DNA of 64,000 nucleotides from Gammaproteobacteria bacterium (GTDB lineage Bacteria; Pseudomonadota; Gammaproteobacteria; Pseudomonadales; Azotimanducaceae): NCBI GenBank assembly GCA_002725995.1, contig PBRQ01000028.1, positions 743 through 64,742 of the forward strand. The letters are read 5' to 3'. Of this stretch, positions 18,991 through 34,397 are shown one piece after another (the first letter of the stretch is position 1; each line of letters starts with the position of its first letter). The notes under the pieces are model-generated. The model had not been told where the DNA came from, ran no database searches, and worked only from the letters and a program-made list of their open reading frames with translations. A program made the position numbers and the translations under genes.

Positions 18991-19437
18991 ATGACATTAC
19001 CGGTACCACCTGATGCTGCAATGATTTTGCAGAACAGCATCGTTACGCTTCGGGACGTCTTGTTACCGCTCACCAAAGATGATGAATATGCCCGCTTCAA
19101 TGGTGGCTTACTCGTTGGTGCGCTTGAATATGCACTTGCCTCCCTGGAGGAAGACAGGGCCAGCAAGAATCGAACCGGGTTGGCGGCGGCACTGGAAGAA
19201 TTACGGCCAGCACTGCTGCAGGCTGATAACGCCGAACTGATCGCCATGATCGATCTGGCATCCCCATTTGAAGCAGCATCGAAGTTGCTGGTATGGGGGC
19301 AGAACAACCCTGGAGAACTGGCGAATGAAGTGCAAAAAATATTGCGGGCGGAGCTAAATTTGCAACTTGATACAGAGTTAGGCGCATCAGTGCCGATAAT
19401 GGGTGCGTTTATGGCCGGTATGCGAGGTGATGTTTGA
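18991..19437 (+). CDS. Small helical protein translationally coupled to the APH-family kinase (putative kinase partner)
   Basis: AGGAG lies 8 nt before ATG 18991. Its stop TGA overlaps the TTG start of the kinase (TTGA). DVLLPLTKDDEYARFNGGLLVGALEYAL resembles TTILPELTSSDAKFSALMATEVLSYL in the N-terminal extension of kinase 2956..4431. The Ser-rich antisense ORF 18828..19454 is rejected. Confidence 0.6.
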   Translation: MTLPVPPDAAMILQNSIVTLRDVLLPLTKDDEYARFNGGLLVGALEYALASLEEDRASKNRTGLAAALEELRPALLQADNAELIAMIDLASPFEAASKLLVWGQNNPGELANEVQKILRAELNLQLDTELGASVPIMGAFMAGMRGDV

Positions 19438-20396
19438 ATAAGGAAAAGCGACATGCCGCTTTAGCACCCTACCTTCGGGACATTTTAGAGGCTGATGATA
19501 GTGTTGCTATCGTTGCTGAAAATCGCCTGACCATGGGGCAGTCACGGGCGATGTTTGTGTTGGACCTGGAATATGCCAAAGATGGTGCGGCGATCCAGCG
19601 CAAGGTAGTGGTCCGTGTTGAACAGTGGGGGCACCTGGGTTCCGATAGCGAGAATGAAGTGAATATCATGCGTGCCCTGCATGCGCTGGACTACCCGGTC
19701 GCAGAGATTCTGGGCTATGAGACATCAAGCGATTTACTTGAACAGCCCTTTTTTGTCATGGGCTTTGTGCCTGGCGTGAGTACCTTCTCGGAGGATACGG
19801 CGGATGAATATATTGCTGCACTGCATCGCCTGCACTCTATTGATGCGACCAGTGACGCCTTTGACTTCCTTGAAACACCAGGGGCACCACATGGTGCAGC
19901 CCTGCAGCAGGTGGAACGGTGGTATGACACTTATCGCTCCCACATAGTGGGTGAACCATCACCCCTGGTTGAGGAAGCGACACAGTGGCTGCGCAATAAT
20001 GCCCCGGAGAATGAGCGGGTAACTCTCGTCCATGGTGATCCAGGCCCTGGAAATTATCTCTATGACGATGGACATGTTACGGCGGTCGTTGACTGGGAGT
20101 TTATTCACAAGGGGGATCCATACGATGACTGGGCCTACCTGATTGCCATGCGAGGTGTGGCCTACCTGCAGGAAGACGACTGGATCGCAAGAATTGAAAA
20201 GATCACCGGCAGCAAAATAGACCGGCAGCGGCTGGAATACTGGAAGGCGGTCAACTTCCTGATGGGTGTCGGTATTGATCAGACATCGCACCGGATATAC
20301 GCCGATCACCAGAATCCAGCACCCAACCTACTGGCTATTGCAACGGGGGTTCACCTGTCGGCGCTAAGACGTTTGTGTAATGCGATATTCTTGTGA
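19434..20396 (+). CDS. APH-family phosphotransferase (kinase)
   Basis: LVHGDPGPGNYLYDDGHVTAVVDWEFIHKGDPYDDWAY (HGDxxxxN...DWE). The start is probably TTG, overlapping the upstream stop. Confidence 0.85.
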   Translation: MNKEKRHAALAPYLRDILEADDSVAIVAENRLTMGQSRAMFVLDLEYAKDGAAIQRKVVVRVEQWGHLGSDSENEVNIMRALHALDYPVAEILGYETSSDLLEQPFFVMGFVPGVSTFSEDTADEYIAALHRLHSIDATSDAFDFLETPGAPHGAALQQVERWYDTYRSHIVGEPSPLVEEATQWLRNNAPENERVTLVHGDPGPGNYLYDDGHVTAVVDWEFIHKGDPYDDWAYLIAMRGVAYLQEDDWIARIEKITGSKIDRQRLEYWKAVNFLMGVGIDQTSHRIYADHQNPAPNLLAIATGVHLSALRRLCNAIFL

Positions 20397-20502: not shown

Positions 20503-22398
20503 CTAGAGGGTTCGGCCGACCTCGTGGCCCTCAACTATGGCTTCCCTGAATCTGTCATGACCATTGGCATCACCAATGACATGTATGTCTGTAACCTGTG
20601 TTTTTAGGGATTCGGCCAGTTCCTTGTCCGCGTCATAGCCAATGGCAAGAACGATCGTGTCCACCTTGAAGAAACGGGTCTTGCCGTTGATCGTCACGCT
20701 AGCACCTTCGGGCGTGATTTCTTCAATCGTCGTAAACTCATGGGTCATCACACCTGCCATTGCCACGTTGTCCAGCATTGCGGGTCTATTGAACATTGAG
20801 AAGTCCCTCGCCAGTTCACTACGTGCGACCAGGTCCACAGCCCTGCCCTGCTTGGCCAGTAGTTCTGCTGTTTCTAGACCGACCATGCCGCCACCAATAA
20901 CCAGGACCTTTTGCCCCACCGGTACTTCGCCTGTTATTGCCGTTTCGGCTGGCACGACATTGTCACCCTCCATGCCCAGCACATTGAGCCCCCTTGGTTT
21001 TGCGCCAATAGCCAGAACCACGGCATCCGGCTTGACCTCGCTGACGAGGTCAGCATTCACTTCTGTGTCTAGCTCGATTTTGACGCCAGCTTTTTTCATA
21101 CCTGTTTCAAGGTATTTTCTGAAGTCATCGACATCTTCTTTGCCATGACCGGCTGCAGCAGCATACAGTAGTCCACCCAGCCGATTGTCTCTCTCGTACA
21201 GGGTTACATCATGTCCTCTCTCGGCTGCTACCCTTGCCGCTTCCATGCCCGCAGGGCCGGAGCCGGCAATCATGACCTTCCGTGCTTTTTCGGCCGGCCC
21301 AAACTCAGTCTCGGCTTCATAGCATAGCCGGGCATTGACGGCACAGCTCATGTGATCGTACTTGGATCGGTCAAAACATGTGTTGCAACCAAGGCAGGGT
21401 GTTATCGTCTCCGAGAGTCCAGCCTGCGCCTTGTTGGGCCACTCAGGATCAGCCATCAGCGCTCTTGCCATGCCGATAATATCGGCTTTACCAGATCGGA
21501 GAATCTCTTCAGCCTCACCGGGTTGGGATATTCTTCCTACAGCGATTATTGGGATATCAACGACCTTTTTGATAGCGCCAGCCCAGTCAGCAAAACAGTT
21601 ACGTGGAAATGAGATCATCAGTGGCACACAGGATGAGATAAAACCCCGGTTGTGACTGTTGGCTCCTTCGGAGATGATCAGTGCATCGACGCCTGACTCC
21701 TCAAGCAGCTGGGCAGCGCGGCAGGAATCCCCCAGTGAGATGCCATTGTGCTCCGGCTCCATCGCAGCAAGCCTGAAGGTAATACCAAAATCGTCCCCGA
21801 CCGATTTGCGGATAGCCTCTACGGTTTCAGTCATCCAGCGGACCCTGTTCTCGATTGGTCCGCCGTATTCGTCCTCCCGGTGATTGTCCATTGGCGAGAG
21901 AAACTGCCGCCAGATGTAGGCATGGGTTGCATGTAGCTCCATGAAATCAAATCCGGCTTCCCGCTGGTTGTAGGCGGCTTCCGCGAGCCAGGCCGTGTAT
22001 TGATGCATTTCCTCGACCGTAATTTCGAGTGGCCTCGGGTCGGGCCAGTCAATGGCAATGGATTGTTCCGTCGCCGGTGACCAGCCACCGGAAGGTGTCA
22101 GGGGGCGAGTGTCTGTTTTCTCCGGGCCGTAGATAGCGAGGGACTGGGTACCGACATAACAATCTTCGGCTGCGTCGTGCATGGTTTTTGCGAACCGCTT
22201 AAGTTCCTTGGTCGGGTGGCGAAGTATCTCCATATTGGCCAGACCACCCGTTGTGAGTGCCGCAACGCCACCCCTGGCTCGTGCCGAATAGTAGTTCAAG
22301 GCAGTTGCATTACGGTGGCCAGGATTACCAAGGGGCAGGTGGTAAGTCCTGTTCTTGAAGGTCATGGGTCCGACTTTAATAGGCTCGAAAAGTTTCAT
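20503..22398 (-). CDS. FadH/BaiH-class NAD(P)H:flavin oxidoreductase (OYE TIM barrel + 4Fe-4S + FAD/NAD domains), copy 1
   Basis: MTFKNR OYE-type start; Cys cluster CLGCNTCFDRSKYDHMSC; two dinucleotide folds, IAGSGPAGMEAA and VIGGGMVGLETA. About 88% aa identity to copy 2 over the stretches compared by eye. Confidence 0.85.
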   Translation of the reverse strand: MKLFEPIKVGPMTFKNRTYHLPLGNPGHRNATALNYYSARARGGVAALTTGGLANMEILRHPTKELKRFAKTMHDAAEDCYVGTQSLAIYGPEKTDTRPLTPSGGWSPATEQSIAIDWPDPRPLEITVEEMHQYTAWLAEAAYNQREAGFDFMELHATHAYIWRQFLSPMDNHREDEYGGPIENRVRWMTETVEAIRKSVGDDFGITFRLAAMEPEHNGISLGDSCRAAQLLEESGVDALIISEGANSHNRGFISSCVPLMISFPRNCFADWAGAIKKVVDIPIIAVGRISQPGEAEEILRSGKADIIGMARALMADPEWPNKAQAGLSETITPCLGCNTCFDRSKYDHMSCAVNARLCYEAETEFGPAEKARKVMIAGSGPAGMEAARVAAERGHDVTLYERDNRLGGLLYAAAAGHGKEDVDDFRKYLETGMKKAGVKIELDTEVNADLVSEVKPDAVVLAIGAKPRGLNVLGMEGDNVVPAETAITGEVPVGQKVLVIGGGMVGLETAELLAKQGRAVDLVARSELARDFSMFNRPAMLDNVAMAGVMTHEFTTIEEITPEGASVTINGKTRFFKVDTIVLAIGYDADKELAESLKTQVTDIHVIGDANGHDRFREAIVEGHEVGRTL

Positions 22399-22638
22399 AG
22401 GCTGCTCTCGGTTAGTTCCTAGCTCTGGCTTAATTCCGCAAGAATTGTAGGGTTGTCAGTGTGAGGAGATTTTGGGCCGGTGTAAAGTGCCAGGGAAAAT
22501 TTTACCGTTAGCCGAAGAAATTATGGAGTCCTGCGTAAATTTTGTGGAAGGGGAGTCGCCGATCAAGGTTGTGGAGAGCGCTCAAGGCAACTTGAAATAC
22601 TGGCCAAGAATCCCAACTGAGGTCATGCTCGGCTCCTC

Positions 22639-23430
22639 TTAGAGAGCCGTGCCGCCGTTTACGTCCCACAGGGCACCGGTAACGCCACCGCCTGCATCGG
22701 AGGCTAGAAGCACTGCCACCGCTGCCATTTCCTCGACGGTATTCAACCGGTTTATAGCAGCATCCTTGGCGTAATCCTGAACATATTCATCATAGGTCAT
22801 ACCGAGTGCCGCGGCCGCTTCCGGCCCGGTATCTGTCATCAGGTCAGTCTCAACGGCCCCAGGACAGATTGCGTTGCAGGTGATTCCGAGCTGGCCGTTT
22901 TCAAAAGCCACAGCTTTTGTAAAGCCATTGATAGCGTGCTTGTTAGTGATGTAATGGGACACCATTGACTTGTTGGCCTGCTTTCCCTCCACGGAGGAGA
23001 TATTAATGATGCGCCCCCACTGACGAGTCAGCATATCCTGCAGAGCGCGCCGTGTTGCCCAGAAGGTGGCATTCAACATCCAGTTAAGCGCCTCGTTCCA
23101 GGCTTCATCGCTGAGTGAAGCGACGGGCGCGAAGCCTGAAGATCCCCCGGCATTGTTGACCAGGATATCTATCCTGCCGAATTGATCGATGGTTCCTGTT
23201 ACGGCATCTTCCACCGATGACTGTTCTCTTACGTCGCCGGCAATGAAGTGCGCACTGTCGCCAGCGGCCATTTCAGCAAGGGCCTGATCACCCTTTTCCT
23301 GGGAGCGCCCACTGACCACGACTTTTGCGCCTTCGGCCAAAAAAGCCTCGGCGATGCCGCGCCCGATACCACGGGTTGCGCCCGTAATGAGTGCAACCCG
23401 GTCAGCGAGTTTTTTTGCCACTTCTGTCAC
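22639..23430 (-). CDS. Short-chain dehydrogenase/reductase
   Basis: ITGATRGIGRGIA, NNAGG, YITNKHAINGFTK, CPGAV. Paralogue of 9417..10193. GTG start. Confidence 0.88.
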   Translation of the reverse strand: MTEVAKKLADRVALITGATRGIGRGIAEAFLAEGAKVVVSGRSQEKGDQALAEMAAGDSAHFIAGDVREQSSVEDAVTGTIDQFGRIDILVNNAGGSSGFAPVASLSDEAWNEALNWMLNATFWATRRALQDMLTRQWGRIINISSVEGKQANKSMVSHYITNKHAINGFTKAVAFENGQLGITCNAICPGAVETDLMTDTGPEAAAALGMTYDEYVQDYAKDAAINRLNTVEEMAAVAVLLASDAGGGVTGALWDVNGGTAL

Positions 23431-23472
23431 CCCTATCTTGGACTCCAGACAATTCCTGTGAACCTGGTAGGT

Positions 23473-25371
23473 CTAGAGGTTTCTGCCGACTTCATGACCC
23501 TCAATGATGGCTTCCCTGAACCTGTCATGACCATTGGCATCACCAATGACATGTATGTCTGCATTCTGTTGCTTCAAGGACTCTGCCAGTTCGGTATCAG
23601 CATCATAGCCAATAGCCAGGATGATCGTATCTACCTTGAAGAAACGGGTCTTGCCGTTAATCGTCACGTTAGCACCTTCGGGTGTGATCTCTTCAATCGT
23701 TGTAAATTCATGGGTGATTACGCCAGCCATTGCCACCTTGTCCAGCATTGCCGGTTTGTTGAACATTGAAAAGTCTCTCGCCAGTTCACTACGGGCAACC
23801 AGGTCCACTGCCTTGCCATGATTAGCCAGTAGTTCTGCGGTTTCAAGACCGACCATGCCGCCACCAATGACCAGTACCTTTTGCCCCACTTCTACTTCGC
23901 CCGTTATCGCCAATTCAGCAGGTACGACATTGTCACCTTCCATTCCCAGCACGTTGAGTCCCCTCGGTTTGGCGCCGATTGCCAGAACCACGGCATCCGG
24001 CTTGACCTGGGTGACGAGTTCGGCATTTACTTCTGTGTCCAGCTCTATTTTGACGCCCGCTCGTTCCATGCCTGTTTCCAGGTATTTTCTGAAGTCATCG
24101 ACATCACCTTTACCTTCACCAGCAGCGGCGGCGTACAGCAGCCCCCCGAGGCGGTTTTCTCTTTCGTACAGGGTCACGTCATGGCCTCTCTCAGCTGCGA
24201 TCCTTGCCGCTTCCATACCAGCAGGGCCTGAACCAGCTATCATGATCTTGCGAGCGTTTTCGGCTGGGCCATACTCAGTTTGTTCTTCATAGCAGAGTCT
24301 GGCATTGACGGCGCAGGTCATGTGATCGTATCCCTGGGAATAGTCAAAACATGTGTTGCAACCAAGGCAGGGAATGATTGTCTCAGAGAGCCCTGCCCGT
24401 GCCTTGTTAGCCCACTCGGGATCAGCCATCAAGGCTCTTGCCAGGCCGATGATATCAGCCTGACCTGACTGCAGAATTTCTTCGGCCTCGGCTGGTTGCG
24501 TTATTCTCCCCACGGCGATGACGGGAATATCGACGACCTTCTTAATAGCTCCCGCCCAATGCGCAAAACAGTTGCGATCGAAAGAGATCATCAGGGGTAC
24601 GCAGGAGGAGATAAATCCACGGTTGTGACTGTTGGCTCCCTCAGAGATGATCAAGGCATCGACGCCGGCCTCTTCAAGCAGCTGCGCAGCACGGCTGGAA
24701 TCTCCCAGTGAGATACCATTGTGCTCGGGCTCCATCGCAGCAAGCCTGAAGGTAATACCAAAATCATCACCCACTGACTTGCGGATGGCCTCAACGGTTT
24801 CAGTCATCCAGCGCACCCGATTCTCGATCGGTCCACCGTATTCATCTTCCCGGTGATTGTCCATGGGCGAGAGAAACTGTCGCCAGATATAGGCGTGGGT
24901 TGCATGCAGTTCCATGAAATCAAATCCGGCTTCCCGCTGGTTGTAGGCGGCTTCCGCGAGCCATGCCGTGTACTGATGCATCTCCTCGACTGTAATTTCA
25001 ACCGGCCTCGGATCAGGCCAGTCAATGGCAATGGACTGTTCCGTCGCCGGTGACCAGCCGCCCGAAGGTGTCAGGGGTCGTTTATCTATTTTCTCGGGGC
25101 CGTAGATAGCGAGAGACTGGGTGCCGACATAACAGTCATCCGCCGAGTCGTGGATGGTTTTTGCGAACCGCTTCAGTTCCTCGGTGGGGTGACGAAGTAT
25201 TTCCATATTGGCGATGCCACCCGTGGTGAGCGCTGCAACGCCACCCTCTGCACGTGCTGAATAGTAGTTCAGTGCTGTTTGACTGCGATGGCCAGGCTCA
25301 CCAAGGGGCAGGTGATAAATCCTGTTCTTGAAGGTCATGGGTCCGACTTTAATAGGCTCAAATAATTTCAT
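23473..25371 (-). CDS. FadH/BaiH-class NAD(P)H:flavin oxidoreductase, copy 2
   Basis: Same architecture as copy 1, with CLGCNTCFDYSQGYDHMTC (one-residue insertion), IAGSGPAGMEAA and VIGGGMVGLETA. Confidence 0.85.
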   Translation of the reverse strand: MKLFEPIKVGPMTFKNRIYHLPLGEPGHRSQTALNYYSARAEGGVAALTTGGIANMEILRHPTEELKRFAKTIHDSADDCYVGTQSLAIYGPEKIDKRPLTPSGGWSPATEQSIAIDWPDPRPVEITVEEMHQYTAWLAEAAYNQREAGFDFMELHATHAYIWRQFLSPMDNHREDEYGGPIENRVRWMTETVEAIRKSVGDDFGITFRLAAMEPEHNGISLGDSSRAAQLLEEAGVDALIISEGANSHNRGFISSCVPLMISFDRNCFAHWAGAIKKVVDIPVIAVGRITQPAEAEEILQSGQADIIGLARALMADPEWANKARAGLSETIIPCLGCNTCFDYSQGYDHMTCAVNARLCYEEQTEYGPAENARKIMIAGSGPAGMEAARIAAERGHDVTLYERENRLGGLLYAAAAGEGKGDVDDFRKYLETGMERAGVKIELDTEVNAELVTQVKPDAVVLAIGAKPRGLNVLGMEGDNVVPAELAITGEVEVGQKVLVIGGGMVGLETAELLANHGKAVDLVARSELARDFSMFNKPAMLDKVAMAGVITHEFTTIEEITPEGANVTINGKTRFFKVDTIILAIGYDADTELAESLKQQNADIHVIGDANGHDRFREAIIEGHEVGRNL

Positions 25372-25440
25372 ATGTTGCTCTCAGTTAGTTCTTGTCCCTA
25401 GTTCAATTACTTAAAAATTGGGGTTGTTGGTATAGGGGTA

Positions 25441-26181
25441 TTATATGGTTGTCCAGCCGCCATCGACATCAAGTACCATGCCCGTTGCGTAGTCACATTT
25501 AGCCAGAAACATGGCGGCCTCGGCCATGTCTTCCGGGAAGCCCGGTCGACCCATGGGAATTTTCTCAACAAATTCTCGGCGCAGGCTGTTAACGGGATCG
25601 TCAAGGTTCAAATCTGCATGAGCAGGACGATCTATAATCAGGCCGGGTGAAAGGACATTAACTCTTATTTCTCTCGGTGCCAGTTCCATTGCCAAAGCTT
25701 TACCCATGGAATTCACTGCACCACAGAGGCCAGCGCCACCTGCATATTCGACGATGCCTGCGCGTGCAGCAATGCCAGAACAAAGCATGATCACACTCCC
25801 CGCCGGCATCTTTGGTACCGCGTAGTGGCACGCACGTATCTGACCAAAAAAGCGGGGAGCGAATAGTTCTTCCCACTCTGATACAGGTAGCTCATCGATG
25901 GCACCAAACACGAAGGAGCCGGCACAGGTGGCGAGTAAATCGACTTGTTCGAAGGGCTCGAAGAACTTTGCAACCTGATCATCATTTGCCGCATCAACCT
26001 GGGCATAGGTAGCACCGTGGCCGATGGATGCAACCGCTTCCTTTAGCTTGTCTTCATTTCTGGCCACTATGGTGACATTGGCACCCTCACTTGCGAACCT
26101 GCGGGCTATTGCCAGCCCAATATTGGAACTCCCGCCGAAGACGACGGCATTTTTGCCAGTCAAACTATCCATATAGGGCAC
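25441..26181 (-). CDS. Short-chain dehydrogenase/reductase
   Basis: VFGGSSNIGLAIARRFASEGANV Gly-rich motif, typical SDR length and C-terminal VDGGW. Confidence 0.8.
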   Translation of the reverse strand: MPYMDSLTGKNAVVFGGSSNIGLAIARRFASEGANVTIVARNEDKLKEAVASIGHGATYAQVDAANDDQVAKFFEPFEQVDLLATCAGSFVFGAIDELPVSEWEELFAPRFFGQIRACHYAVPKMPAGSVIMLCSGIAARAGIVEYAGGAGLCGAVNSMGKALAMELAPREIRVNVLSPGLIIDRPAHADLNLDDPVNSLRREFVEKIPMGRPGFPEDMAEAAMFLAKCDYATGMVLDVDGGWTTI

Positions 26182-26229
26182 CTCATTTAGTTTGTTCTTA
26201 ATTGAAATACTTTCGTTATTATCACCATA

Positions 26230-27027
26230 TCAAAGAGTTAACCAGCCGCCATCAATAGGCAGGTAGACCCCGGTTATGTATTCACTCATGGGGGAGCATA
26301 AGAATAGAGCCGCCTTACCGACTTCGTCAGGCTTACCCCAGCGCTCCATCGGTATGCGCGAAATCCTCGAGGCGACCTGATCGTTGAGGGGTTGCCCACT
26401 GTGGGTGGGTACAGCATTCGGGTCAATGGGAGGTTCCGGGAAATCCTGGACCCAGGTAGCGCCAGGTGCCAGCGCATTGACATTGATCTTGTGCTTGGCG
26501 AGTTCAAGTGCCATTGTCTTCGTCATCTGGGTTACGGCTGCCTTGGAACCATCATAGTTAACGCCCACACCGGGAGTAACAGCCTGAGTTGAAGCCATAT
26601 TAATGATGCGGCCACCCTTTCCTGCCTCGATCATGGCGCGTGCCTCTGCGCGACAGCAGTAAAATACACCGTCGAGGTTAACGGACATCAGACCACGCCA
26701 GCGGTCGGTTTCCATGTCGACAAGTGGACCACCAAAACCGTTATAAACTCCGGCATTGTTGACGGCAATATCCAACCCGCCATGTTTGACCACAATATCA
26801 GCGATCGCTTTATCGACCATCTCTTCATTTGACACATCCAATGGCAGCGGCTCTGCACCGAGGGTTGCCGCTGTTTCCTGGACAAGCTCCTCGTTGACAT
26901 CTGAGACTATCACCGTAGCACCGGCAGCCTGCAGGGTTTCAGCAACAGACTTGCCAATGCCATGCGCAGCGCCCGTGATGAGAGCAGTCTTGCCCGTGAG
27001 ATCTAGCCAGTCAGCAGGTGAGGTCAT
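26230..27027 (-). CDS. Short-chain dehydrogenase/reductase
   Basis: ITGAAHGIGKSVA, NNAGV, YDGSKAAVTQMTK, IDGGW. ATG 27027 follows GGAG (the track start is TTG 27042). Confidence 0.88.
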   Translation of the reverse strand: MTSPADWLDLTGKTALITGAAHGIGKSVAETLQAAGATVIVSDVNEELVQETAATLGAEPLPLDVSNEEMVDKAIADIVVKHGGLDIAVNNAGVYNGFGGPLVDMETDRWRGLMSVNLDGVFYCCRAEARAMIEAGKGGRIINMASTQAVTPGVGVNYDGSKAAVTQMTKTMALELAKHKINVNALAPGATWVQDFPEPPIDPNAVPTHSGQPLNDQVASRISRIPMERWGKPDEVGKAALFLCSPMSEYITGVYLPIDGGWLTL

Positions 27028-27139
27028 AAAAATTTTCTCCAAAGGTGTGATGTTAGATAGTATTTTGCTTCATCAGTGTTCATTTCTGCGCTGCAGCATT
27101 TACTTGCAACAGCCAAATTGCCTTACATCCAGGTGAAAT

Positions 27140-27658
27140 CTAGGCGCCTTTTGCTGCTGAGATTTCATTGCATTGTTTCTTCATCATATCCATGCCTGCT
27201 ATGACGGCTTCACTAAAATCGAGAATCTCAATAACTGAACAGTGATTGTCGTTACAATCGAAATAGCTGAATCTCACCTGTCCATCAGACAGGGAGCCCT
27301 GGCCGAGCAACTCGCAGCCTTCAAATGCTGCGACTACCTCATCATATTCCGGAACAACAAAGGCAATGTGGTGCAAACCACTGCGACCCTGATCCTGGAA
27401 TTCCGTATAGATACTCTTGCCTCTGACGGGCTGTATTAACTCAATTTGTACTTCTCCGGCGAAGCCCAGCGCTATAGTCATGGCGCTGTCAGATGTTTGA
27501 CCGCGGTACTGGCAGGTATCACCCAGTTCCACCTCCGAGCGAGCCCAGACGGGTACACCGAGCATTTTGCCGAACCACTCTTCTGCCGTGATAATATCCG
27601 GCACGACATAGGCAGTCTGGAAATAGTACTGGCCTATGGAGTCAAGAATGCTGCTCAT
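27140..27658 (-). CDS. VOC (glyoxalase/bleomycin-resistance/dioxygenase) superfamily protein
   Basis: GLHHIAFVVPEYDEVV metal-ligand style motif. Paralogue of 38241..38753 (GFHHVGCLVTDFEKE). First gene of the minus-strand operon 27658->20503. Confidence 0.75.
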   Translation of the reverse strand: MSSILDSIGQYYFQTAYVVPDIITAEEWFGKMLGVPVWARSEVELGDTCQYRGQTSDSAMTIALGFAGEVQIELIQPVRGKSIYTEFQDQGRSGLHHIAFVVPEYDEVVAAFEGCELLGQGSLSDGQVRFSYFDCNDNHCSVIEILDFSEAVIAGMDMMKKQCNEISAAKGA

Positions 27659-27817
27659 TTTCTTCTTCCTTTCATTGGTTAAGTGTTTAGATATTGGCGG
27701 GGTGCTGCGTCTTCGCGAGTCCTGTAAATGGTGTTTTGTTACCCCAATTCCTCAGTCCATCAATAGGGCAACATGGATACTACCAATTGCATTTAACTAC
27801 AAGCCTTTTGTTTGTGC

Positions 27818-27830
27818 CATATGAAATTGC
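27818..27830 (+). promoter_or_regulatory. Conserved 13-bp box CATATGAAATTGC, copy 2
   Basis: Identical to 7324-7336. It lies 74 nt upstream of ATG 27904 of the P4-P5-Mo-P6 operon. Confidence 0.4.
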
Positions 27831-27903
27831 AACACGTGATAAAATATTGTTACTATCCAGTCAGAAAATGCAAGTTTTAGAATTCACGACCTGAGGATAG
27901 TTG

Positions 27904-28911
27904 ATGACAATTGTAGATGATGACGAGTATTTACATCCGGCACCAGATGGATCAGATGGGCTTTGGAGTGACAACCTGTGGTTTTCGTTCTGTGATCGTG
28001 AAGCAGATATATTTGGTATCAACCACTTCCACGTAACGAACAAGGGATATGCTCGATTCAGCACCTGCCTGGTGATTGATGGAATCCCCATGCCCTGGGC
28101 AAACAAAGTGCCCTGGGATGATATTGGTAAGTTCGATGTCCTGACGGATGGCGGTAGCATGACCTACCAGGTGATCAAGCCCCAGGAAGAACTCAGGATT
28201 ACAGCGGACAACGAAAAGTATGGATTTGACGTGACCTTCAGGGCGCGGTTTCCAGTGTTTGATTACAATGACTGTCTTGGCGGTAACCCGCTTAAATCTG
28301 CCGGGGAGTACGGGGGACACTACGAGCAAGGGCTTCAGTGTAATGGAGATTTTGAAGTGCGTGGTGGTCCTCGAGCGGGATTGAGAAAGGTTGACTGTTA
28401 TTCTCACCGCGATCATTCCTGGACGGACCGCTTTCGTAGCGGCTCTCCATGGGAGCCAAATAAGCCTGCCACCAGAGAGCAGTCTTTGGGCCACTACTGG
28501 CCTTCAATTCAGACTGACAGCATGCACCTGAATGCATTTGGTTATATGAGTCCTTCCTTCCAGGCAGTGAATCCGGAACGGTCCAGCATCGGTGGATTTC
28601 TGTCGGACAAGAATGGTTCACGGCCCATACAAGGTGCGCAATGCCTTGACTGCCGTTTGGAAGATGATGGACGCTCAGCGATGAGTTTCCGCTATCAATT
28701 CACTTTGCCCGATGGTGAAGTCATTCATGTCAAAACTGGCCGCAAGTATGCTCAGTCAGTCAATGGGTTGATGCGCGGAGAAAATGATGCCGAGTGTTTA
28801 CTCGACTGTTATGAAGGTTTCTTCGATTTTGAAGTGGAAGAGACGGGCGAGCGTGGGTATGGTTGTGCTGAATACTCAATCAATCCACCATTTCCACGGT
28901 GGCGGTACTAA
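27904..28911 (+). CDS. Uncharacterised RDHSW-family protein, paralogue P4 (short subfamily)
   Basis: DDEYLHPAPDG, WSDNLWFSFCDREADIFGINHFHVTNKG, RFPVFDY, YSHRDHSWTDRF, FFDFEVEETGERGYGCAEYS. Confidence 0.72.
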   Translation: MTIVDDDEYLHPAPDGSDGLWSDNLWFSFCDREADIFGINHFHVTNKGYARFSTCLVIDGIPMPWANKVPWDDIGKFDVLTDGGSMTYQVIKPQEELRITADNEKYGFDVTFRARFPVFDYNDCLGGNPLKSAGEYGGHYEQGLQCNGDFEVRGGPRAGLRKVDCYSHRDHSWTDRFRSGSPWEPNKPATREQSLGHYWPSIQTDSMHLNAFGYMSPSFQAVNPERSSIGGFLSDKNGSRPIQGAQCLDCRLEDDGRSAMSFRYQFTLPDGEVIHVKTGRKYAQSVNGLMRGENDAECLLDCYEGFFDFEVEETGERGYGCAEYSINPPFPRWRY

Positions 28912-28983
28912 ATAAGTTAACTGGCCGATGAAATTAGCAACAAAGAAACTTGATATTCAAATACCAGATATAAGGAAAGAGCC

Positions 28984-29952
28984 ATGGTAGTTAAAGCAGA
29001 AGACGAATACAGGCATGAAGCGCCAGAAGACCTGAGCGCTGGTTTCTGGGGCGACACGCTCTGGGTCAGTGTGGTGGATCGCGAAGCAAATATCTTCGGA
29101 ATAAACCACTTCACACTAACGAACAAAGGCTGGGGGCGATTTGAGGCACTCTACGTTATCGATGGTGTTCAGCAGCAGTACGGAAACAAGTACCCCTTGA
29201 CCAAGGAGGCGGACCAGGGGCCTTGGAGTGATGGGCTCCTGACCTATGAAGTGGTTAAGCCGCTGGAGGAAATCAGGATTACATTTGATGGACCACGATT
29301 TGGCTTCGATCTGAGCTTTAAGGGTCGCTTCCCTGTCTTCGACTACGAAGACTCTGTCAACGGAAACCCACTCAGCCATGGTCACTATTACGGCGGTCAT
29401 TTTGAGCAGGGGTTGCATTGTACGGGCCCATTTGAAATCCGAGGCGGACCCTGCAAGGGCGAAACACGCCAGCTGGATTCATGGTCTCACCGCGATCATT
29501 CTTGGTCTACCCGCTTTGCGGATGAGCCACCCTGGGATTATTCACAACAAAATATCGCCAACCATTACTGGCCCTCCATTCAGTTGGTGGACAAGCACAT
29601 TAATGTTTTTGGTGTACATCAGCCTGACGGTCCTTTCGGTGGCTTCGTTTCAGATGCCAATGGCTCAAGAGCGATGCTCAGTGCTTCCTGCGAGGTTCTG
29701 AAATCTGACAATCAGCGTGATGCCGCGGCTTTCAGGTACACTTTGGAAATGCCAGATGGTGAAACCCTACATGTTCGAACAGGGCGCAAATACGGTCAGG
29801 TAAAACTCTGGGATCGGGGTGAAAATGACCTGGAGAATCGCCTCGACTGCTACGAGCCATTTTTTGACTTTGAAGTTGAAGAGACCGGTGAGCGGGGTTA
29901 TGGCGTATGTGAGTATTCTGTCCATCCACCGTGGCCTCGCTGGCTGGTATAA
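28984..29952 (+). CDS. Uncharacterised RDHSW-family protein, paralogue P5 (short subfamily)
   Basis: EDEYRHEAPED, WGDTLWVSVVDREANIFGINHF, WSHRDHSWSTRF, FFDFEVEETGERGYGVCEYS. Roughly 75-80% identical by eye to P6. AAGGAAAGAG RBS. Confidence 0.72.
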   Translation: MVVKAEDEYRHEAPEDLSAGFWGDTLWVSVVDREANIFGINHFTLTNKGWGRFEALYVIDGVQQQYGNKYPLTKEADQGPWSDGLLTYEVVKPLEEIRITFDGPRFGFDLSFKGRFPVFDYEDSVNGNPLSHGHYYGGHFEQGLHCTGPFEIRGGPCKGETRQLDSWSHRDHSWSTRFADEPPWDYSQQNIANHYWPSIQLVDKHINVFGVHQPDGPFGGFVSDANGSRAMLSASCEVLKSDNQRDAAAFRYTLEMPDGETLHVRTGRKYGQVKLWDRGENDLENRLDCYEPFFDFEVEETGERGYGVCEYSVHPPWPRWLV

Positions 29953-29976
29953 AATACGCCTGTCTCAACAGGAGCA

Positions 29977-32115
29977 ATGAGTATGAGCACACACAAAACC
30001 TTTTGCCGATTCTGCCATGCTTATTGCGCCATTGAGGTCGATGTTGAAGATGGTGTTCCCATTGAAGTAAGAGGGGATACCAGTGATCCAGTCTATTCCG
30101 GTTACACTTGTATCAAGGGGCGCCAGCTTCCTGCCCAGTTCACCAACCCAGGGCGGGTGCGCAAGCCCTTAAAGAGAATGCCCGATGGTTCGTACCAGGA
30201 AATTGATTTACAGGTTGCCCTCGATGAGATTGGTGCCAAGGTCAAGACCTTGCTCGATGACAACCCACGCGGTGTAGCCACCTATATCGGTTCGTACGGG
30301 TTTCAGAATTCCGCTGCGCTACATATAGCGAAGTCGTGGCACAAGAGCGTCGGCTCAACCTCATATTACACTTCCGTAACCATCGATCAACCGGCGAAGC
30401 AGATTGCCTGGTCAAGAGTCGGCTCCTGGGGCGGTGGTAGCCACAGTTTTACCGATGCAGATGTGGTCATGCTCATTGGTAATAATGCCGTGGTATCACA
30501 GTATTCGCCCTTCGGCGGTATTCCTCCATTCAGTCCCTACAAAAGGCTGCGTGATGAAGTCAAGAAGGGCATGAAGGTCATCACGGTAGATCCACGTAAA
30601 ACAGAGGTTGCAAACCGGTCCCACATACACATGCAGATTAATCCCGGTAAGGATGCGACACTGCTGTCCGGTATGATCAATATCATATTGAGTGAAGGGC
30701 TGGAGGATACTGAATTTTGCAATGCATATGTTCAGGACCTAGACAGTTTCAGAAACCGGGTAAAGGACTATACCCCTGGCTATGTTGCTCAGCAGTGCGG
30801 TATCCCGGAAGAGCAGTTATTTGAAGCCACGCGTCTCTTCGCAGCCGGGCCAAGGGGCGTAGCATCGGCAGGGACAGGGCCTGACATGGCATCTCATGCG
30901 GTCCTGACGGAACACCTGATTGTCGTGCTCAACCTAATCTGCGGCAGGGTCAACAGGGAGGGTGAGCGATTCCCAAACCCCGGTATGATGACGCCCGAGA
31001 TACCGCGCAGGGCTGAAGTAATTCCTCCTTCCCCTGTGTTTGGCATCGGTCCCAAGAGTCGGTTCAGGGGGCTGGGCGAGGTATTTGGAGAGATGCCTAC
31101 TGCTACTCTCAATGATGAAATCCTGGAGGACGGAGAAGGCCAGATCAAAGCGTTATTTTGTATGGGTGGCAATCCGATGGTCGCATTTCCGGATCAGGAT
31201 AAAACCAAACGCGCGATGGACAAGCTGGAATTGCTCGTTTGCATTGATATTGTCCGTTCCGCGACATCCAAATTAGCAGACTACATTCTCCCACCCACCC
31301 TGTCTCTTGAACGTGATGACGTGACCATGCTGACAGATGTCTGGTACGACCAGCCCTATAGCCACTACACGGAGGCCATTCTTGAGAAGAATCCTCAGAG
31401 CCTCGAAGAGTGGGAGTTTTACTGGGAAATATCGCGAAGGCTGGGCATACCCATAGATCTGCCGGGCGGGCAGCTAGGCCTGGAGACATGTCCAACCAAG
31501 TTTGAAGCGCTGGACCTTCTAACCCCGGGTGCCAAGGTGCCAGTTGCCGATATTCGGGCAAAACCTGCCGGGCATCTGTTTGAGAAAATCAACATCACGG
31601 TTGAAGCCGGGTCAAATAGCGATTCACTGTTTCAACTGGAGCCTGAAGGCGTTGCTGAAGAAATACAGGAAATTCTGGCGGAGCCTGTTTGGACCGACGG
31701 CAAAATTATTGATAATGACAAGGAGTACACCCACCTGTTGATAAGCCGTCGATTGAAGCATTACTTTAATTCTTCAGGTCACACATTGCCGGCATTGATG
31801 GCGAAGGGCACGACTAACTACGCCTATATGAACCCATCTGACCTAGCGGAAATGAGGATTGAGGATGGGCAGTTAGTTGAAATAAGTGCTTCAGCAGGAT
31901 CATTAGTGGGTGTGGCAGAATCCGCGCAAGATGTAAAATCAGGAACTGTGTCTATGGCTCATGCTTTCGGTGATCTACCGGGTAACTTTGGTGATGTTCG
32001 AGAGGTTGGCAGCAGCACCAACCGTCTGGTTGACGATGATCGCACCTATTGCAAGATCAGTGGAATGCCTCGTATGAGTGCTATCCCTGTCAATCTGAGA
32101 GTCGTTGCTGAATAG
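29977..32115 (+). CDS. Single-subunit cytoplasmic molybdopterin (bis-MGD, DMSO-reductase superfamily) oxidoreductase with N-terminal 4Fe-4S domain
   Basis: The N-terminal Cys pattern is C-x2-C-x3-C-x27-C (FCRFCHAYC...YTCIKG). There is no twin-arginine signal. The C-terminal dinucleotide-binding barrel is MNPSDLAEMRIEDGQLVEISASAGSLVGVAE. The start may be the second ATG at 29983, which has better RBS spacing. Confidence 0.85.
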   Translation: MSMSTHKTFCRFCHAYCAIEVDVEDGVPIEVRGDTSDPVYSGYTCIKGRQLPAQFTNPGRVRKPLKRMPDGSYQEIDLQVALDEIGAKVKTLLDDNPRGVATYIGSYGFQNSAALHIAKSWHKSVGSTSYYTSVTIDQPAKQIAWSRVGSWGGGSHSFTDADVVMLIGNNAVVSQYSPFGGIPPFSPYKRLRDEVKKGMKVITVDPRKTEVANRSHIHMQINPGKDATLLSGMINIILSEGLEDTEFCNAYVQDLDSFRNRVKDYTPGYVAQQCGIPEEQLFEATRLFAAGPRGVASAGTGPDMASHAVLTEHLIVVLNLICGRVNREGERFPNPGMMTPEIPRRAEVIPPSPVFGIGPKSRFRGLGEVFGEMPTATLNDEILEDGEGQIKALFCMGGNPMVAFPDQDKTKRAMDKLELLVCIDIVRSATSKLADYILPPTLSLERDDVTMLTDVWYDQPYSHYTEAILEKNPQSLEEWEFYWEISRRLGIPIDLPGGQLGLETCPTKFEALDLLTPGAKVPVADIRAKPAGHLFEKINITVEAGSNSDSLFQLEPEGVAEEIQEILAEPVWTDGKIIDNDKEYTHLLISRRLKHYFNSSGHTLPALMAKGTTNYAYMNPSDLAEMRIEDGQLVEISASAGSLVGVAESAQDVKSGTVSMAHAFGDLPGNFGDVREVGSSTNRLVDDDRTYCKISGMPRMSAIPVNLRVVAE

Positions 32116-32200
32116 CAGGTCGGATCTAAGATCACCGATACGCGCTCTGAAAACGGGTCGTGTATCATCGCTTACTTTTTTGTAGTCAGGATGATTGGAT

Positions 32201-33223
32201 ATGGTTGAAGTAGTAGATGATTTTCGACATGTCGCCCCGGCAGAAGCGGAAAATGAACTCTGGGGTGATACGCTCTGGATCAGCGTTGTCGATAGGGAAG
32301 CCAATATATTTGGCATTATCCACCTTCATCTAACGAACAAAGGTTGGGGACGGTTTGAATCACTTTTTGTGATTGATGGTGTGCAGCAGCAGTACGGGAA
32401 CAAGTATCCGCTAACAAAAGACACGGACCAGGGACCCTGGTCAGATGGGTTGCTCACCTATGAAGTAATCAAACCCCTCGATGAAATTCGTGTCCAGTTT
32501 AATGGTCCGCGCTACGGCTTTGATTTGAACTTCAAGGGTCGCTTCCCAGTATTTGATTATGCCGACTCTGTCTATGGCAACCCCTTGAGCCATGCAAACT
32601 ATTATGGCGGACATCTTGAACAGGGTATGCACTGCACCGGTAGTTTTGAGATTCGCGGTGGACCCAATAAGGGCGATGTGCGCAAGCTGGATTCCTGGTC
32701 CCACCGGGACCACTCCTGGTCGACTCGGTTTGCAGATGAGCCGGCATGGGACTACGGACAACACAATATACAATCCCACTACTGGCCTTCTATTCAACTT
32801 CCCGACAAACATATCAATGTATTTGGACTGTTCCGAGAAGATGTTCTCAAGCTAACGTTTGAACATGGCACTGAGGCAGTCGACAGTGGGTCTGACAAAC
32901 AGATTATTGGTGGATTTGTTGCCAGTGCGGATGGGGTCGAGGCTGTTCGAGGTGCATCTGCAAAGGTGCTGCTTGAGGATGATGGAAGAACTGCCGCAGC
33001 CTTCAGCTACGAAATTATCATGCCGGACGAAAGTATTATTCATGTGAATACGGGCCGGAAGTATGGTCAGGTCAAGCTCTGGGATCGTGGTGAAAATGAC
33101 CTTGAGAACAGGCTGGATTGCTATGAACCTTTCTTTGATTTCGAGATTGAGGAAACCGGGGAGCAGGGATATGGGGTTTGTGAATATTCAATCGCACCAC
33201 CCTGGCCGCGGTGGCTCGTATAA
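32201..33223 (+). CDS. Uncharacterised RDHSW-family protein, paralogue P6 (short subfamily)
   Basis: DDFRHVAPAE, WGDTLWISVVDREANIFGIIHLH, WSHRDHSWSTRF, FFDFEIEETGEQGYGVCEYS. It carries a ~20-aa insertion relative to P5. ATG 32201 is preferred over the track start TTG 32195. Confidence 0.72.
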   Translation: MVEVVDDFRHVAPAEAENELWGDTLWISVVDREANIFGIIHLHLTNKGWGRFESLFVIDGVQQQYGNKYPLTKDTDQGPWSDGLLTYEVIKPLDEIRVQFNGPRYGFDLNFKGRFPVFDYADSVYGNPLSHANYYGGHLEQGMHCTGSFEIRGGPNKGDVRKLDSWSHRDHSWSTRFADEPAWDYGQHNIQSHYWPSIQLPDKHINVFGLFREDVLKLTFEHGTEAVDSGSDKQIIGGFVASADGVEAVRGASAKVLLEDDGRTAAAFSYEIIMPDESIIHVNTGRKYGQVKLWDRGENDLENRLDCYEPFFDFEIEETGEQGYGVCEYSIAPPWPRWLV

Positions 33224-33386
33224 CTCAGCGCATGGAAATTTCAGGATAAGAACAACTGAATAGTTAGAGGTGTCTGCGATGCAGGGGGAGATCTAAATGC
33301 TTTTACTATCGATGAAGAGGGTAATAAAAATGTTACCGCACTGGCTGTTCGGCCCCGGGTTGTTCGATCCAGTGTGCAGGCAAGCG

Positions 33387-34397
33387 ATGAAACATCGATT
33401 GCTCCTGTTGTTAAGTCTGATGTTTATGGCAAACAGCAGCAGTGCATTAAATATTCTACTGACCAATGATGATGGCTGGGATACTGAAAATATTCGGGTT
33501 CTGAAATTGGAATTAGATGCTGCCGGCCACGACGTTATTATGTCGACCCCCTGTACTCAACAAAGCGGCAAGGGCGGCGCCCTGACCGTGCTGAAACATC
33601 TACCGGTCAATACCTCAAGATCATCACGTGGTGAGTATTGTTTGGGGGATGTTGATGCAAGTAAATCCTATGCGGAATATGCAGATGGCACACCGGTAAT
33701 GTCCGCGTTGTATGGGATAGATGTGTTGGCTCCGCGAAAGTGGGAGGGCGCCCCTGACCTGGTGATATCAGGTCCGAATACAGGCAACAACCTTGGAATG
33801 GTAAACAATAACTCTGGGACCCTGGGCGCTGCACTGGTTGCCATCAGCCGGGGAATACCGGCGATAGCGGTCAGTGCGAACACCATGTCGCTCATTGATA
33901 AAACCCAGGCCCCTATTATTGCTGATGTGACTCTCAATATCCTTGCCCAGTTGGAAGCAAGTCGCTCACCTTCAGCACCGCTTTTACCACCCTTGACCGG
34001 ATTGAATATTAACTTCCCGAAAGAAATTAAGAGTCACAAGGGAATCAAATTTACACAGGTTGGCTGGGAATCAGCTTTTGCTTTGGGGTTCTCCACTGAC
34101 CTGTCAAAAGAAAAAAGGATCATGGTGCTGGCAGCGGCGAGAATACTCGATTCTGGTAAGGTAAAGTCCTGGGATGAGGCCATGAAGGTGGCAGAGAGCA
34201 GGTACAGCGGTAAGAATGGTCTGACTTTTGTTACCAGCGGCGCAGATGACGTTGACCCTCTATCTGAGGGTAATGCGGTGCACGAAGGGTATATAACCAT
34301 CAGCACTTTTGACGGCAGCATACAGGCTGCATCAGAAAAATCACTGGCGACGCAGCGGAGACTGAGCAGCCTCCAAAAACAGATGAAGTCAAAATAG
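33387..34397 (+). CDS. SurE-family 5'/3'-nucleotidase/phosphatase-like protein with signal peptide
   Basis: LNILLTNDDGWD is the SurE signature. MKHRLLLLLSLMFMANSSSA is a cleavable-type signal if the start is ATG 33387. The track ORF starts at 33297. Confidence 0.7.
   Translation: MKHRLLLLLSLMFMANSSSALNILLTNDDGWDTENIRVLKLELDAAGHDVIMSTPCTQQSGKGGALTVLKHLPVNTSRSSRGEYCLGDVDASKSYAEYADGTPVMSALYGIDVLAPRKWEGAPDLVISGPNTGNNLGMVNNNSGTLGAALVAISRGIPAIAVSANTMSLIDKTQAPIIADVTLNILAQLEASRSPSAPLLPPLTGLNINFPKEIKSHKGIKFTQVGWESAFALGFSTDLSKEKRIMVLAAARILDSGKVKSWDEAMKVAESRYSGKNGLTFVTSGADDVDPLSEGNAVHEGYITISTFDGSIQAASEKSLATQRRLSSLQKQMKSK

Follow-up and report, generated by a model that had tools for sequence, protein, structure and literature searches.

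Within a 64,000-nucleotide stretch of a Gammaproteobacteria bacterium genome (assembly GCA_002725995.1, contig PBRQ01000028.1), referred to here as the window, three related genes named P4, P5 and P6 lie on either side of a gene for a stand-alone molybdopterin enzyme, MopB. We propose that P4–P6 are lyases of the family founded by 25-phosphosteroid lyase (25-PSL), that they act as partners of APH-type kinases, and that MopB belongs to the same isoprenoid- or sterol-like catabolic pathway without forming one complex with them; the probability that we attach to this reading is roughly 0.55. 25-HSK, a phosphotransferase-family kinase, first phosphorylates the steroid, and 25-PSL then eliminates phosphate from the 25-phospho-steroid to give a delta-24 alkene; a cascade that couples a Mo hydroxylase to a kinase and a lyase has its precedent in Sterolibacterium (PMC7411048, PMC8449060, PMC11061730).

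The P proteins had been described in the initial annotation as near-identical copies of an unknown protein. Their pairwise amino acid identity is just 47–71% (P5/P6 71%, P4/P5 52%, P4/P6 47%), that is, they are diverged paralogues, and the word unknown is now outdated. Family scans gave little, namely weak matches to DUF7064/DUF7065 in Pfam and 39–43 bits to the NCBIfam model Rv3169_fam, which has a cut-off of 150. Every database homologue is named “hypothetical”, and P5 or P1 (a distant paralogue in the window) compared with the Protein Data Bank (PDB) as single sequences matched nothing significant, so that 25-PSL surfaced only through a family profile and a fold search. The profile was derived from an alignment (A2) of 58 members including P4, from a family that public data group into ~1,170 clusters at 50% identity. 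Residues D7, H11, Q142, R170, D171 and G307 are invariant in A2 and many His, Glu and Trp residues are nearly so, a pattern more typical of an enzyme than of a carrier. Searched against the PDB, the A2 profile matched the 25-PSL entries 9fzn (E=7e-12; 9g2i was also matched) and 9g4c (E=1e-10), all three released in January 2026. The profile aligns hRDhsW of the P family with sRDRSWG of 25-PSL, the D7 and H11 region with ADVVRH, Q142 with FAQ, and the C-terminal GYG with GYG. Phosphate and product are bound in entry 9g4c, and there the motif reads RNRSW where 9fzn and 9g2i have RDRSW; because of this Asn the Asp of RDRSW is likely to be catalytic, and it was apparently inactivated by the depositors to trap phosphate and product. 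HRDHSW is carried by all three copies P4, P5 and P6, which had been annotated initially as RDHSW paralogues, and three more distant RDHSW-type paralogues (P1, P2 and P3) occur in the window.

The fold leads to the same family. An AlphaFold2 model of P5 made from the A2 alignment (pLDDT 94.3, pTM 0.92) is an all-beta double barrel, and its best Foldseek matches in the PDB are the 25-PSL structures 9g4c, 9g2i and 9fzn (E=5e-11, TM 0.70; 9g4c_B with TMq 0.70 over 363 aligned columns), followed by kievitone hydratase (7a0t, 7a0q; TM 0.57–0.60) and, lower down, the Diels-Alderases Fsa2 and CghA (7e5t, 6kaw, 6kbc). P4–P6 are therefore 25-PSL-family proteins in which the conserved motif is intact, and from alignment and model they are predicted to possess phosphate-lyase activity. 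The features in common with 25-PSL of Sterolibacterium denitrificans are the double beta-barrel, R-D-x-S-W, the N-terminal D-x3-H, the Gln and the C-terminal GYG; 25-PSL works in a genomic and functional partnership with phosphotransferase-family kinases (PMC8449060). On the other hand, P4–P6 are just ~17% identical to 25-PSL, are ~40 residues shorter and form a separate subfamily with HRDHSW in place of SRDRSWG, hosted by marine Gammaproteobacteria, Dehalococcoidia and Deltaproteobacteria, and the context of this subfamily is usually CoA-ester metabolism (Old Yellow Enzyme-type reductases, OYE; short-chain dehydrogenases/reductases, SDR; acyl-CoA dehydrogenases, ACAD; CoA-transferase) and not sterol side-chain genes. 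A literature search on Rv3169, DUF7064/DUF7065, 25-PSL and molybdopterin with SAR202 returned no functional description of the P or MopB family beyond the Sterolibacterium papers, and no reported function for Rv3169.

Pairing of P genes with APH kinases is recurrent: it is seen for P1 in the window, at the loci L081, L085 and L088 of our collection (L numbers denote loci throughout), and at seven metagenome loci. The latter belong to a set of 30 metagenome loci with P5-like genes, each 8 kb or longer, of which 7/30 have an APH gene flanked by the P5-like and the P4-like gene. The kinase next to P1 matches the ACAD11 kinase domain 8v3v and also 3ats, which we take to be Rv3168. The pairing of P1 with this kinase thus mirrors Rv3169/Rv3168, the P proteins being weakly related to the Rv3169 family, and suggests that the mycobacterial pair is itself a kinase/lyase tandem. 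The kinase at L088 likewise resembles the ACAD11-type kinase domain, as do those of the window. Among PDB entries none bears the label 25-HSK, and 9fsg is named just “aminoglycoside phosphotransferase-like protein”. In ACAD10/ACAD11 a lipid hydroxyl is phosphorylated and the phosphate then eliminated, as proposed here, but elimination there is performed by an acyl-CoA-dehydrogenase domain and not by a PSL-type barrel. A module consisting of SDR, OYE-type reductase, SDR, P5-like, APH, zinc-type alcohol dehydrogenase (Zn-ADH), Glyoxalase_4, P4-like and SDR genes recurs in Deltaproteobacteria, Dehalococcoidia and metagenomes, and all of its families are present at ~19.4–29.9 kb of the window in rearranged order. 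Within it, P4-like orthologues (66–73% identity) adjoin Glyoxalase_4 in 7–8 metagenome loci (L108, L114, L115, L120, L123, L126, L153), and the same adjacency is found at L083 and L085.

MopB is a complete, selected, stand-alone cytoplasmic protein of the bis-molybdopterin guanine dinucleotide (bis-MGD) type with one [4Fe-4S] cluster, and it belongs to an uncharacterised clade. Its Cys10, Cys13, Cys17 and Cys45 form C-x2-C-x3-C-x27-C, and with this motif beginning at residue 10 a Tat signal would not fit. Pfam on ~40 surrounding open reading frames (ORFs) and a motif scan of all window ORFs found no Fer4-type, heme or chaperone gene within ~10 kb; on all of these points the initial annotation, which had reported the same cluster motif and neither Tat signal nor beta, gamma or chaperone gene nearby, proved right. 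Pfam recognizes the Molybdop_Fe4S4, Molybdopterin and Molydop_binding domains (E 1.6e-12, 5e-31 and 1e-15). Homologues number in the thousands and carry generic names throughout, and a genome scan matched the clade in at least 369 species-level genomes, with hosts that include marine Pseudomonadales (OM182, HTCC2089/Azotimanducaceae, Halieaceae), Alphaproteobacteria, Myxococcota, Desulfuromonadales, Spirochaetales, Steroidobacteraceae and Tepidiformaceae/Dehalococcoidia. Among 63 sequences at 52–96% identity, C10, R11, C13, H14, C17, C45 and T135-I136-D137-Q138 are invariant, as are the MGD-binding motifs D205-P206-R207 and G397-G398-N399-P400, while K47 and P139 are conserved in at least 90%. 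Even paralogues at 39–43% identity retain CRFCHA.C and (S/T)-I-D-Q-P-G-K. The AlphaFold2 model (pLDDT 91) is about equidistant in Foldseek from FDH1, polysulfide reductase, Nap, acetylene hydratase and FdhH (TM 0.74–0.77, 18–20% identity).

The metal ligand is a distinguishing feature of the clade. The region GSTSYYTSVTIDQPAK, previously singled out as the candidate, does hold the family-invariant T135-I136-D137-Q138 followed by the near-invariant P139, and alignments show neither Cys nor Sec in this T-I-D-Q-P segment. Alignment had been suggested as the way to locate the ligand; it excluded Cys and Sec, but by itself it returned three positions. In the model D137/Q138 lie at a kink just ahead of helix 139–148, where MopB ligands sit, and position 135 is Ser or Thr among paralogues; for these two reasons D137 is preferred, and Asp137 is most likely the metal ligand. 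To our knowledge, Asp ligands are otherwise found solely in the Nar/EBDH group (EBDH, ethylbenzene dehydrogenase). MopB gives just 65–75-residue local matches to that group (2ivf, with 65 residues, and NarG), which is absent from the Foldseek top 50. The invariant His14, which directly follows the second cluster Cys, aligns with Asp13 of acetylene hydratase, a catalytic residue that activates metal-bound water in that enzyme. MopB is thereby a new form within the superfamily: its scaffold is of type I, its ligand is not Cys but probably Asp, a His stands behind the second cluster Cys, and partner subunits are lacking.

Several characterised families were considered for MopB and rejected. No NCBIfam model reaches its cut-off (score/cut-off: Fdh-alpha, TIGR01591, 187/666; PhsA 164/694; NasC 153/1100; NasA 80/1000), and membership in the FdhF, Nas, Nap or acetylene hydratase families fails because the ligand segment has no Cys and because the His and Arg of formate dehydrogenase (FDH) are replaced by Gln138 and Pro335 (PLRGQ reads v-P-N-P-G). 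Tight clustering with NasA or FdhF, which the initial annotation had named, together with a lack of P synteny elsewhere, as an outcome that would refute its claim, is not what these scores and residues indicate. FdhF-type FDH and NasA/NasC/NarB do resemble MopB in their three-domain architecture, FS0 motif, length of ~700–750 aa and the cluster-to-pterin Lys (K47 in C-I-K-G), whereas no nitrate, nitrite or formate genes lie near MopB in the window; its neighbours are SDR, OYE, PSL-like and SurE genes. Acetylene hydratase of Pelobacter acetylenicus (2e7z) is the best PDB profile match and, like MopB, stands alone in the cytoplasm with one [4Fe-4S] cluster and an ionisable residue straight after the second cluster Cys. 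However, in the profile alignment its ligand Cys141 is replaced by Gln138 and its Asp13 by His14, identity is ~18%, and its fold is no closer than those of FDH, Nap and Psr. An EBDH/S25DH-type hydroxylase was also rejected, as MopB has no Tat signal, no beta or gamma genes and local similarity alone. S25DH and S26DH, which belong to the ethylbenzene-dehydrogenase (type II) group, are exported by Tat to the periplasm, consist of alpha, beta and gamma subunits and need a chaperone, in contrast to the cytoplasmic, single-subunit MopB with its type I C-x2-C-x3-C FS0. What the S25DH/25-HSK/25-PSL/S26DH cascade of anaerobic cholesterol side-chain activation shares with the system proposed here is that MopB-family Mo enzymes are joined by an ATP-dependent kinase and by a phosphate lyase, with a hydrophobic isoprenoid chain as their target (PMC7411048, PMC11061730), and the Zn-ADH and acyl-CoA ligase found near MopB orthologues fit the later steps of that pathway. 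A further difference is that hosts of the MopB clade are mostly aerobes which also carry P450 and Rieske oxygenases.

Neighbourhoods of MopB in other genomes connect the clade with kinases and lyases. In its nearest relatives (at least 60% identity, marine Pseudomonadales) a co-directional ecdysteroid-kinase-like (EcKL)/APH kinase lies 0.6–2.2 kb downstream at 24 loci, the two exceptions being truncated contigs. The operon there (L087 6875-15485; the 24 loci are among L002–L027, L072 and L077) runs TonB receptor, limonene-epoxide-hydrolase-like LEH/SnoaL protein, MopB, in some cases an acyl-CoA ligase, His-phosphatase, EcKL kinase, a 180-aa protein and Zn-ADH. The clearest natural coupling of the clade to a kinase/lyase system is L088 (7482-13661), a locus on contig JBNLVK010000065 of a Myxococcota metagenome-assembled genome (MAG). 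Its operon consists of an APH kinase, a 25-PSL orthologue that matches 9fzn over its full length (phmmer E=1e-91), a MopB 54% identical to that of the window and starting 2 nt past the lyase stop, and a flavin monooxygenase. At L168 (4365-10984) a 43% MopB paralogue, which retains CRFCHAFC and S-I-D-Q-P-G-K, heads a co-directional series of MopB, OYE reductase, SDR and P, with a second P, two enoyl-CoA hydratases, a tyrosine-phosphatase-like gene, APH and ACAD downstream. Another arrangement is seen at 26 Chloroflexota loci among L041–L067 (Tepidiformaceae; e.g., L062 12856-13587), where MopB is followed by a conserved 243-aa protein, then by a Zn-ADH-like gene and the alpha subunit of a Rieske oxygenase. 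Neither the conserved 180-aa protein nor the 243-aa one matches a Pfam family, and no relationship to the P proteins could be detected for either. One Pseudomonadales-type MopB-kinase locus (L011, CAXPUI010000123.1; MopB 65% identical to that of the window) is binned as ‘Candidatus Fonsibacter ubiquis’, which is probably a binning error in a public MAG.

In the window itself, P4, P5, MopB and P6 follow each other on the same strand with gaps of 72 nt (P4–P5), 24 nt (P5–MopB; 30 from the second ATG) and 79–85 nt (MopB–P6), in accord with the co-directional genes and short gaps reported at the outset. Shine-Dalgarno-like sequences precede the ATGs at 27904 (P4, GAGGA 6 nt upstream), 28984 (P5) and 29977 (MopB), and a simple terminator scan of 27900-33300 found no terminator-like site on the + strand. 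Co-transcription is plausible on these grounds, and the four genes probably form one transcript. A promoter scan found no convincing sigma-70 match inside 27659-27903, and for this reason the promoter placed there is presumptive. P4, P5 and MopB are real genes under strong purifying selection, as judged from synonymous/non-synonymous codon differences (P4 106/9, P5 88/7, MopB 148/28) from the sibling MAG Gammaproteobacteria bacterium NP949 (L001; ~88–91% nucleotide identity to the window).

The initial annotation had offered, as one of two readings, a new heteromeric Mo enzyme with P5 and P6 as subunits or substrate-delivery partners of MopB, and had called for a check of whether P-MopB-P is conserved. 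It is not. We searched 80 genome loci with MopB orthologues at 46–96% identity, mostly with 10 kb flanks, using a hidden Markov model of the six window paralogues, and found a P-family gene within 10 kb of MopB in only four: the sibling L001, L034 and L036 (Myxococcota) and L037 (a Spirochaetales MAG, with a fragment at the contig end). The other 76 have none. Conversely, MopB is present at 3 of the 30 P loci and missing from ~27; one of the three, L109, is the window's own organism, and the other two carry 43% and 35% MopB paralogues. The sibling L001 has the same gene order as the window except that P6 is missing (window 32119-33228 against L001 12143-12392), the region upstream of P6 being fused to its last ~20 codons at GGATATGG. 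As GGATATGG is present in the window both at the P6 start (32197-32204) and near its end (~33168), the loss appears to be a microhomology-mediated deletion. P6 is therefore dispensable in that genome, where MopB is still under purifying selection. On synteny and on this deletion we reject P5 and P6 as obligate MopB subunits, and the P-MopB-P arrangement is lineage-specific; what generalises is the linkage of the MopB clade to kinases and lyases.

The heteromer, with P5 and/or P6 binding MopB as structural, substrate-delivery or catalytic subunits, could appeal to the tight spacing without a terminator, to the 2 nt between the lyase and MopB at L088, and to a double-barrel, lipocalin-like fold that could carry hydrophobic ligands. 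We nevertheless hold it to be very improbable in view of the synteny counts and the loss of P6, and furthermore the P proteins retain all the residues conserved with the free-standing lyase and the nearest relatives of MopB stand in operons with entirely different partners. A shared pathway and not a complex would lead one to expect just the pattern observed, since association with kinases and lyases recurs across phyla yet is not universal.

In the pathway that we propose, an APH-type kinase would phosphorylate a hindered, probably tertiary, hydroxyl of a substrate of isoprenoid, sterol or branched acyl-CoA type, and the P lyases, as soluble double-beta-barrel C-O lyases, would eliminate the phosphate to give an alkene. 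MopB would most likely make or consume the alcohol or alkene that kinase and lyase interconvert, by water-dependent hydroxylation or by hydration, and the Zn-ADH and acyl-CoA ligase seen beside orthologues could carry the product onwards. Such a pathway would parallel the logic of S25DH/25-HSK/25-PSL/S26DH in Sterolibacterium. The initial annotation thus survives in its stand-alone cytoplasmic MopB and in its hydration or hydroxylation of a hydrophobic substrate, still the most attractive role and now one with a Sterolibacterium precedent, but not in its heteromer.

A number of observations weigh against this pathway. P5 is just ~17% identical to 25-PSL, and because relatives of the same fold include hydratases and Diels-Alderases the chemistry of the P proteins could differ from that of 25-PSL. 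No kinase lies within the P4–P6 unit, the nearest APH gene (19434-20396) being 7.5 kb upstream on the same strand. In Sterolibacterium itself the lyase gene does not adjoin the kinase gene (PMC8449060). Where six P paralogues crowd 38 kb, adjacency by itself says little, and most MopB orthologues (Tepidiformaceae and others, ~50 loci) have Zn-ADH and Rieske oxygenase nearby instead of a kinase or lyase. As for the active site, the reference Cys falls on T135 (HDCR FdhF), D137 (FDH1, 7vw6) or Q138 (acetylene hydratase), up to 3 residues apart. Finally, if MopB is a single-subunit hydroxylase, it is not obvious what would accept the electrons.

Two further explanations have to be weighed against these facts. 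MopB might be an unrelated cytoplasmic reductase or oxidase, acting on an oxyanion, an S- or N-oxide or a small organic compound, that was inserted into a P array and shares a transcript but not a pathway with it. The conserved P module elsewhere contains no MopB, P5-like and P6-like genes stand in tandem without it at L129, paralogues crowd the island, whose gene order differs from that in other organisms, and neither kinase nor lyase is near MopB in most of its distant orthologous loci. Such a coincidence would however leave the recurrent linkage of the MopB clade to APH/EcKL kinases or PSL-type lyases hard to explain, as it is found independently in marine Pseudomonadales (24 loci), Myxococcota (L034/L088, L036), the Spirochaetales MAG (L037), L168 and the window lineage, and Pfam scans of the neighbours show no transporter or regulator for an inorganic substrate nearby. 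We consider it unlikely, although it is the most serious of the competitors. The other explanation is retained because no electron acceptor for a hydroxylase is identified: MopB would hydrate an unsaturated hydrophobic compound without any net transfer of electrons, as acetylene hydratase does with acetylene, and the missing electron-transfer partners would be accounted for. The profile match to 2e7z (5e-57), the stand-alone cytoplasmic build with FS0 only and the ionisable His14 opposite Asp13 are in its favour, but FDHs score nearly equal (1e-55 to 1e-54), acetylene hydratase is the seventh Foldseek match, its TM equal to those of FDH, Nap and Psr, the ligand Cys141 is absent, and alkene hydration normally needs no Mo or W. 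A purely non-redox hydratase is accordingly rated as distinctly improbable, well below the coincidence though above the heteromer.

With this reading, RDHSW proteins, “hypothetical” everywhere, gain a testable assignment as phosphate-eliminating lyases that work with lipid-hydroxyl kinases, and Rv3168/Rv3169 as well as abundant marine and SAR202-type catabolic islands become linked to the ATP-dependent dehydration chemistry of Sterolibacterium. The P proteins extend, as new and divergent members, a family in which the first structure dates from 2026, and a large unnamed clade of stand-alone cytoplasmic molybdoenzymes is defined by a non-Cys ligand segment and recurrent kinase/lyase linkage. 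A bolder and rather doubtful extension is that the clade marked by C-R-F-C-H-A-x-C and (S/T)-I-D-Q-P might be a new class of single-subunit cytoplasmic Asp-ligated Mo/W enzyme that hydroxylates or hydrates tertiary or allylic carbons of isoprenoid- or sterol-like substrates, and that with APH/EcKL kinases and 25-PSL-type lyases it might form a cytoplasmic counterpart of the S25DH cascade, widespread in aerobic marine Gammaproteobacteria, Myxococcota and Chloroflexota. Were this true, oxygen-independent C-H/C=C functionalisation would reach a new scaffold and the bacteria of the oxic ocean.

Table 1. Genes and regions of the window discussed in the text
Feature	Position	Strand	Description
P1	1943-2953	-	Distant PSL-like paralogue; TRDRSW; Pfam DUF7064 7e-14
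APH kinase	2956-4431	-	491 aa; Pfam APH; P1 immediately downstream
P2	14615-15841	+	PSL-like paralogue; ARDHSWG
P3	16994-18130	+	PSL-like paralogue; VRDHSWG; 32% identical to the L088 25-PSL orthologue
APH-family kinase (lipid-hydroxyl type)	19434-20396	+	Pfam APH 2e-29; candidate lyase partner
OYE-type FMN/FAD reductase, SDR, OYE, SDR, SDR (block)	20503-27042	-	Pfam; same families accompany P5-like/P4-like genes in other organisms
Glyoxalase_4 (VOC)	27140-27658	-	Pfam; conserved companion of P4-like genes
Intergenic region	27659-27903		Between divergent Glyoxalase_4 gene (-) and P4 (+); presumed promoter region of P4-P5-MopB-P6
P4	27901/27904-28911	+	336 aa; 25-PSL-family (Rv3169/DUF7064-7065) paralogue; HRDHSW at 28405-28422
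P5	28984-29952	+	322 aa; 25-PSL-family paralogue; HRDHSW at 29488-29505
MopB	29977-32115	+	712 aa; stand-alone cytoplasmic bis-MGD family; FS0 Cys codons 30004-30111; T-I-D-Q-P codons 30379-30393
P6	32195/32201-33223	+	342 aa; 25-PSL-family paralogue; HRDHSW at 32702-32719

The wider setting is a catabolic island (Table 1). MopB had been placed in a lipid/CoA catabolic island, and Pfam scans of its neighbours agree: positions 1-38000 of the window hold the six PSL-like genes together with SDRs, two luciferase-like monooxygenases, two family III CoA-transferases, SnoaL-like proteins, Glyoxalase_4 proteins, one ACAD and two APH kinases. This repertoire resembles that of SAR202-type ‘recalcitrant organic matter’ islands. 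P2 and P3 flank an SDR gene on the opposite strand. The two OYE genes (20503-22398 and 23473-25371, both on the - strand) encode proteins that are 91% identical, and each is followed by an SDR, an arrangement that points to a recent tandem duplication of a reductase-SDR unit. After P6 comes a gene for a SurE-family phosphatase/nucleotidase (33297-34397, +) with a long hydrophobic N-terminal extension resembling a signal peptide, and it sits where MopB orthologues elsewhere have a histidine phosphatase.

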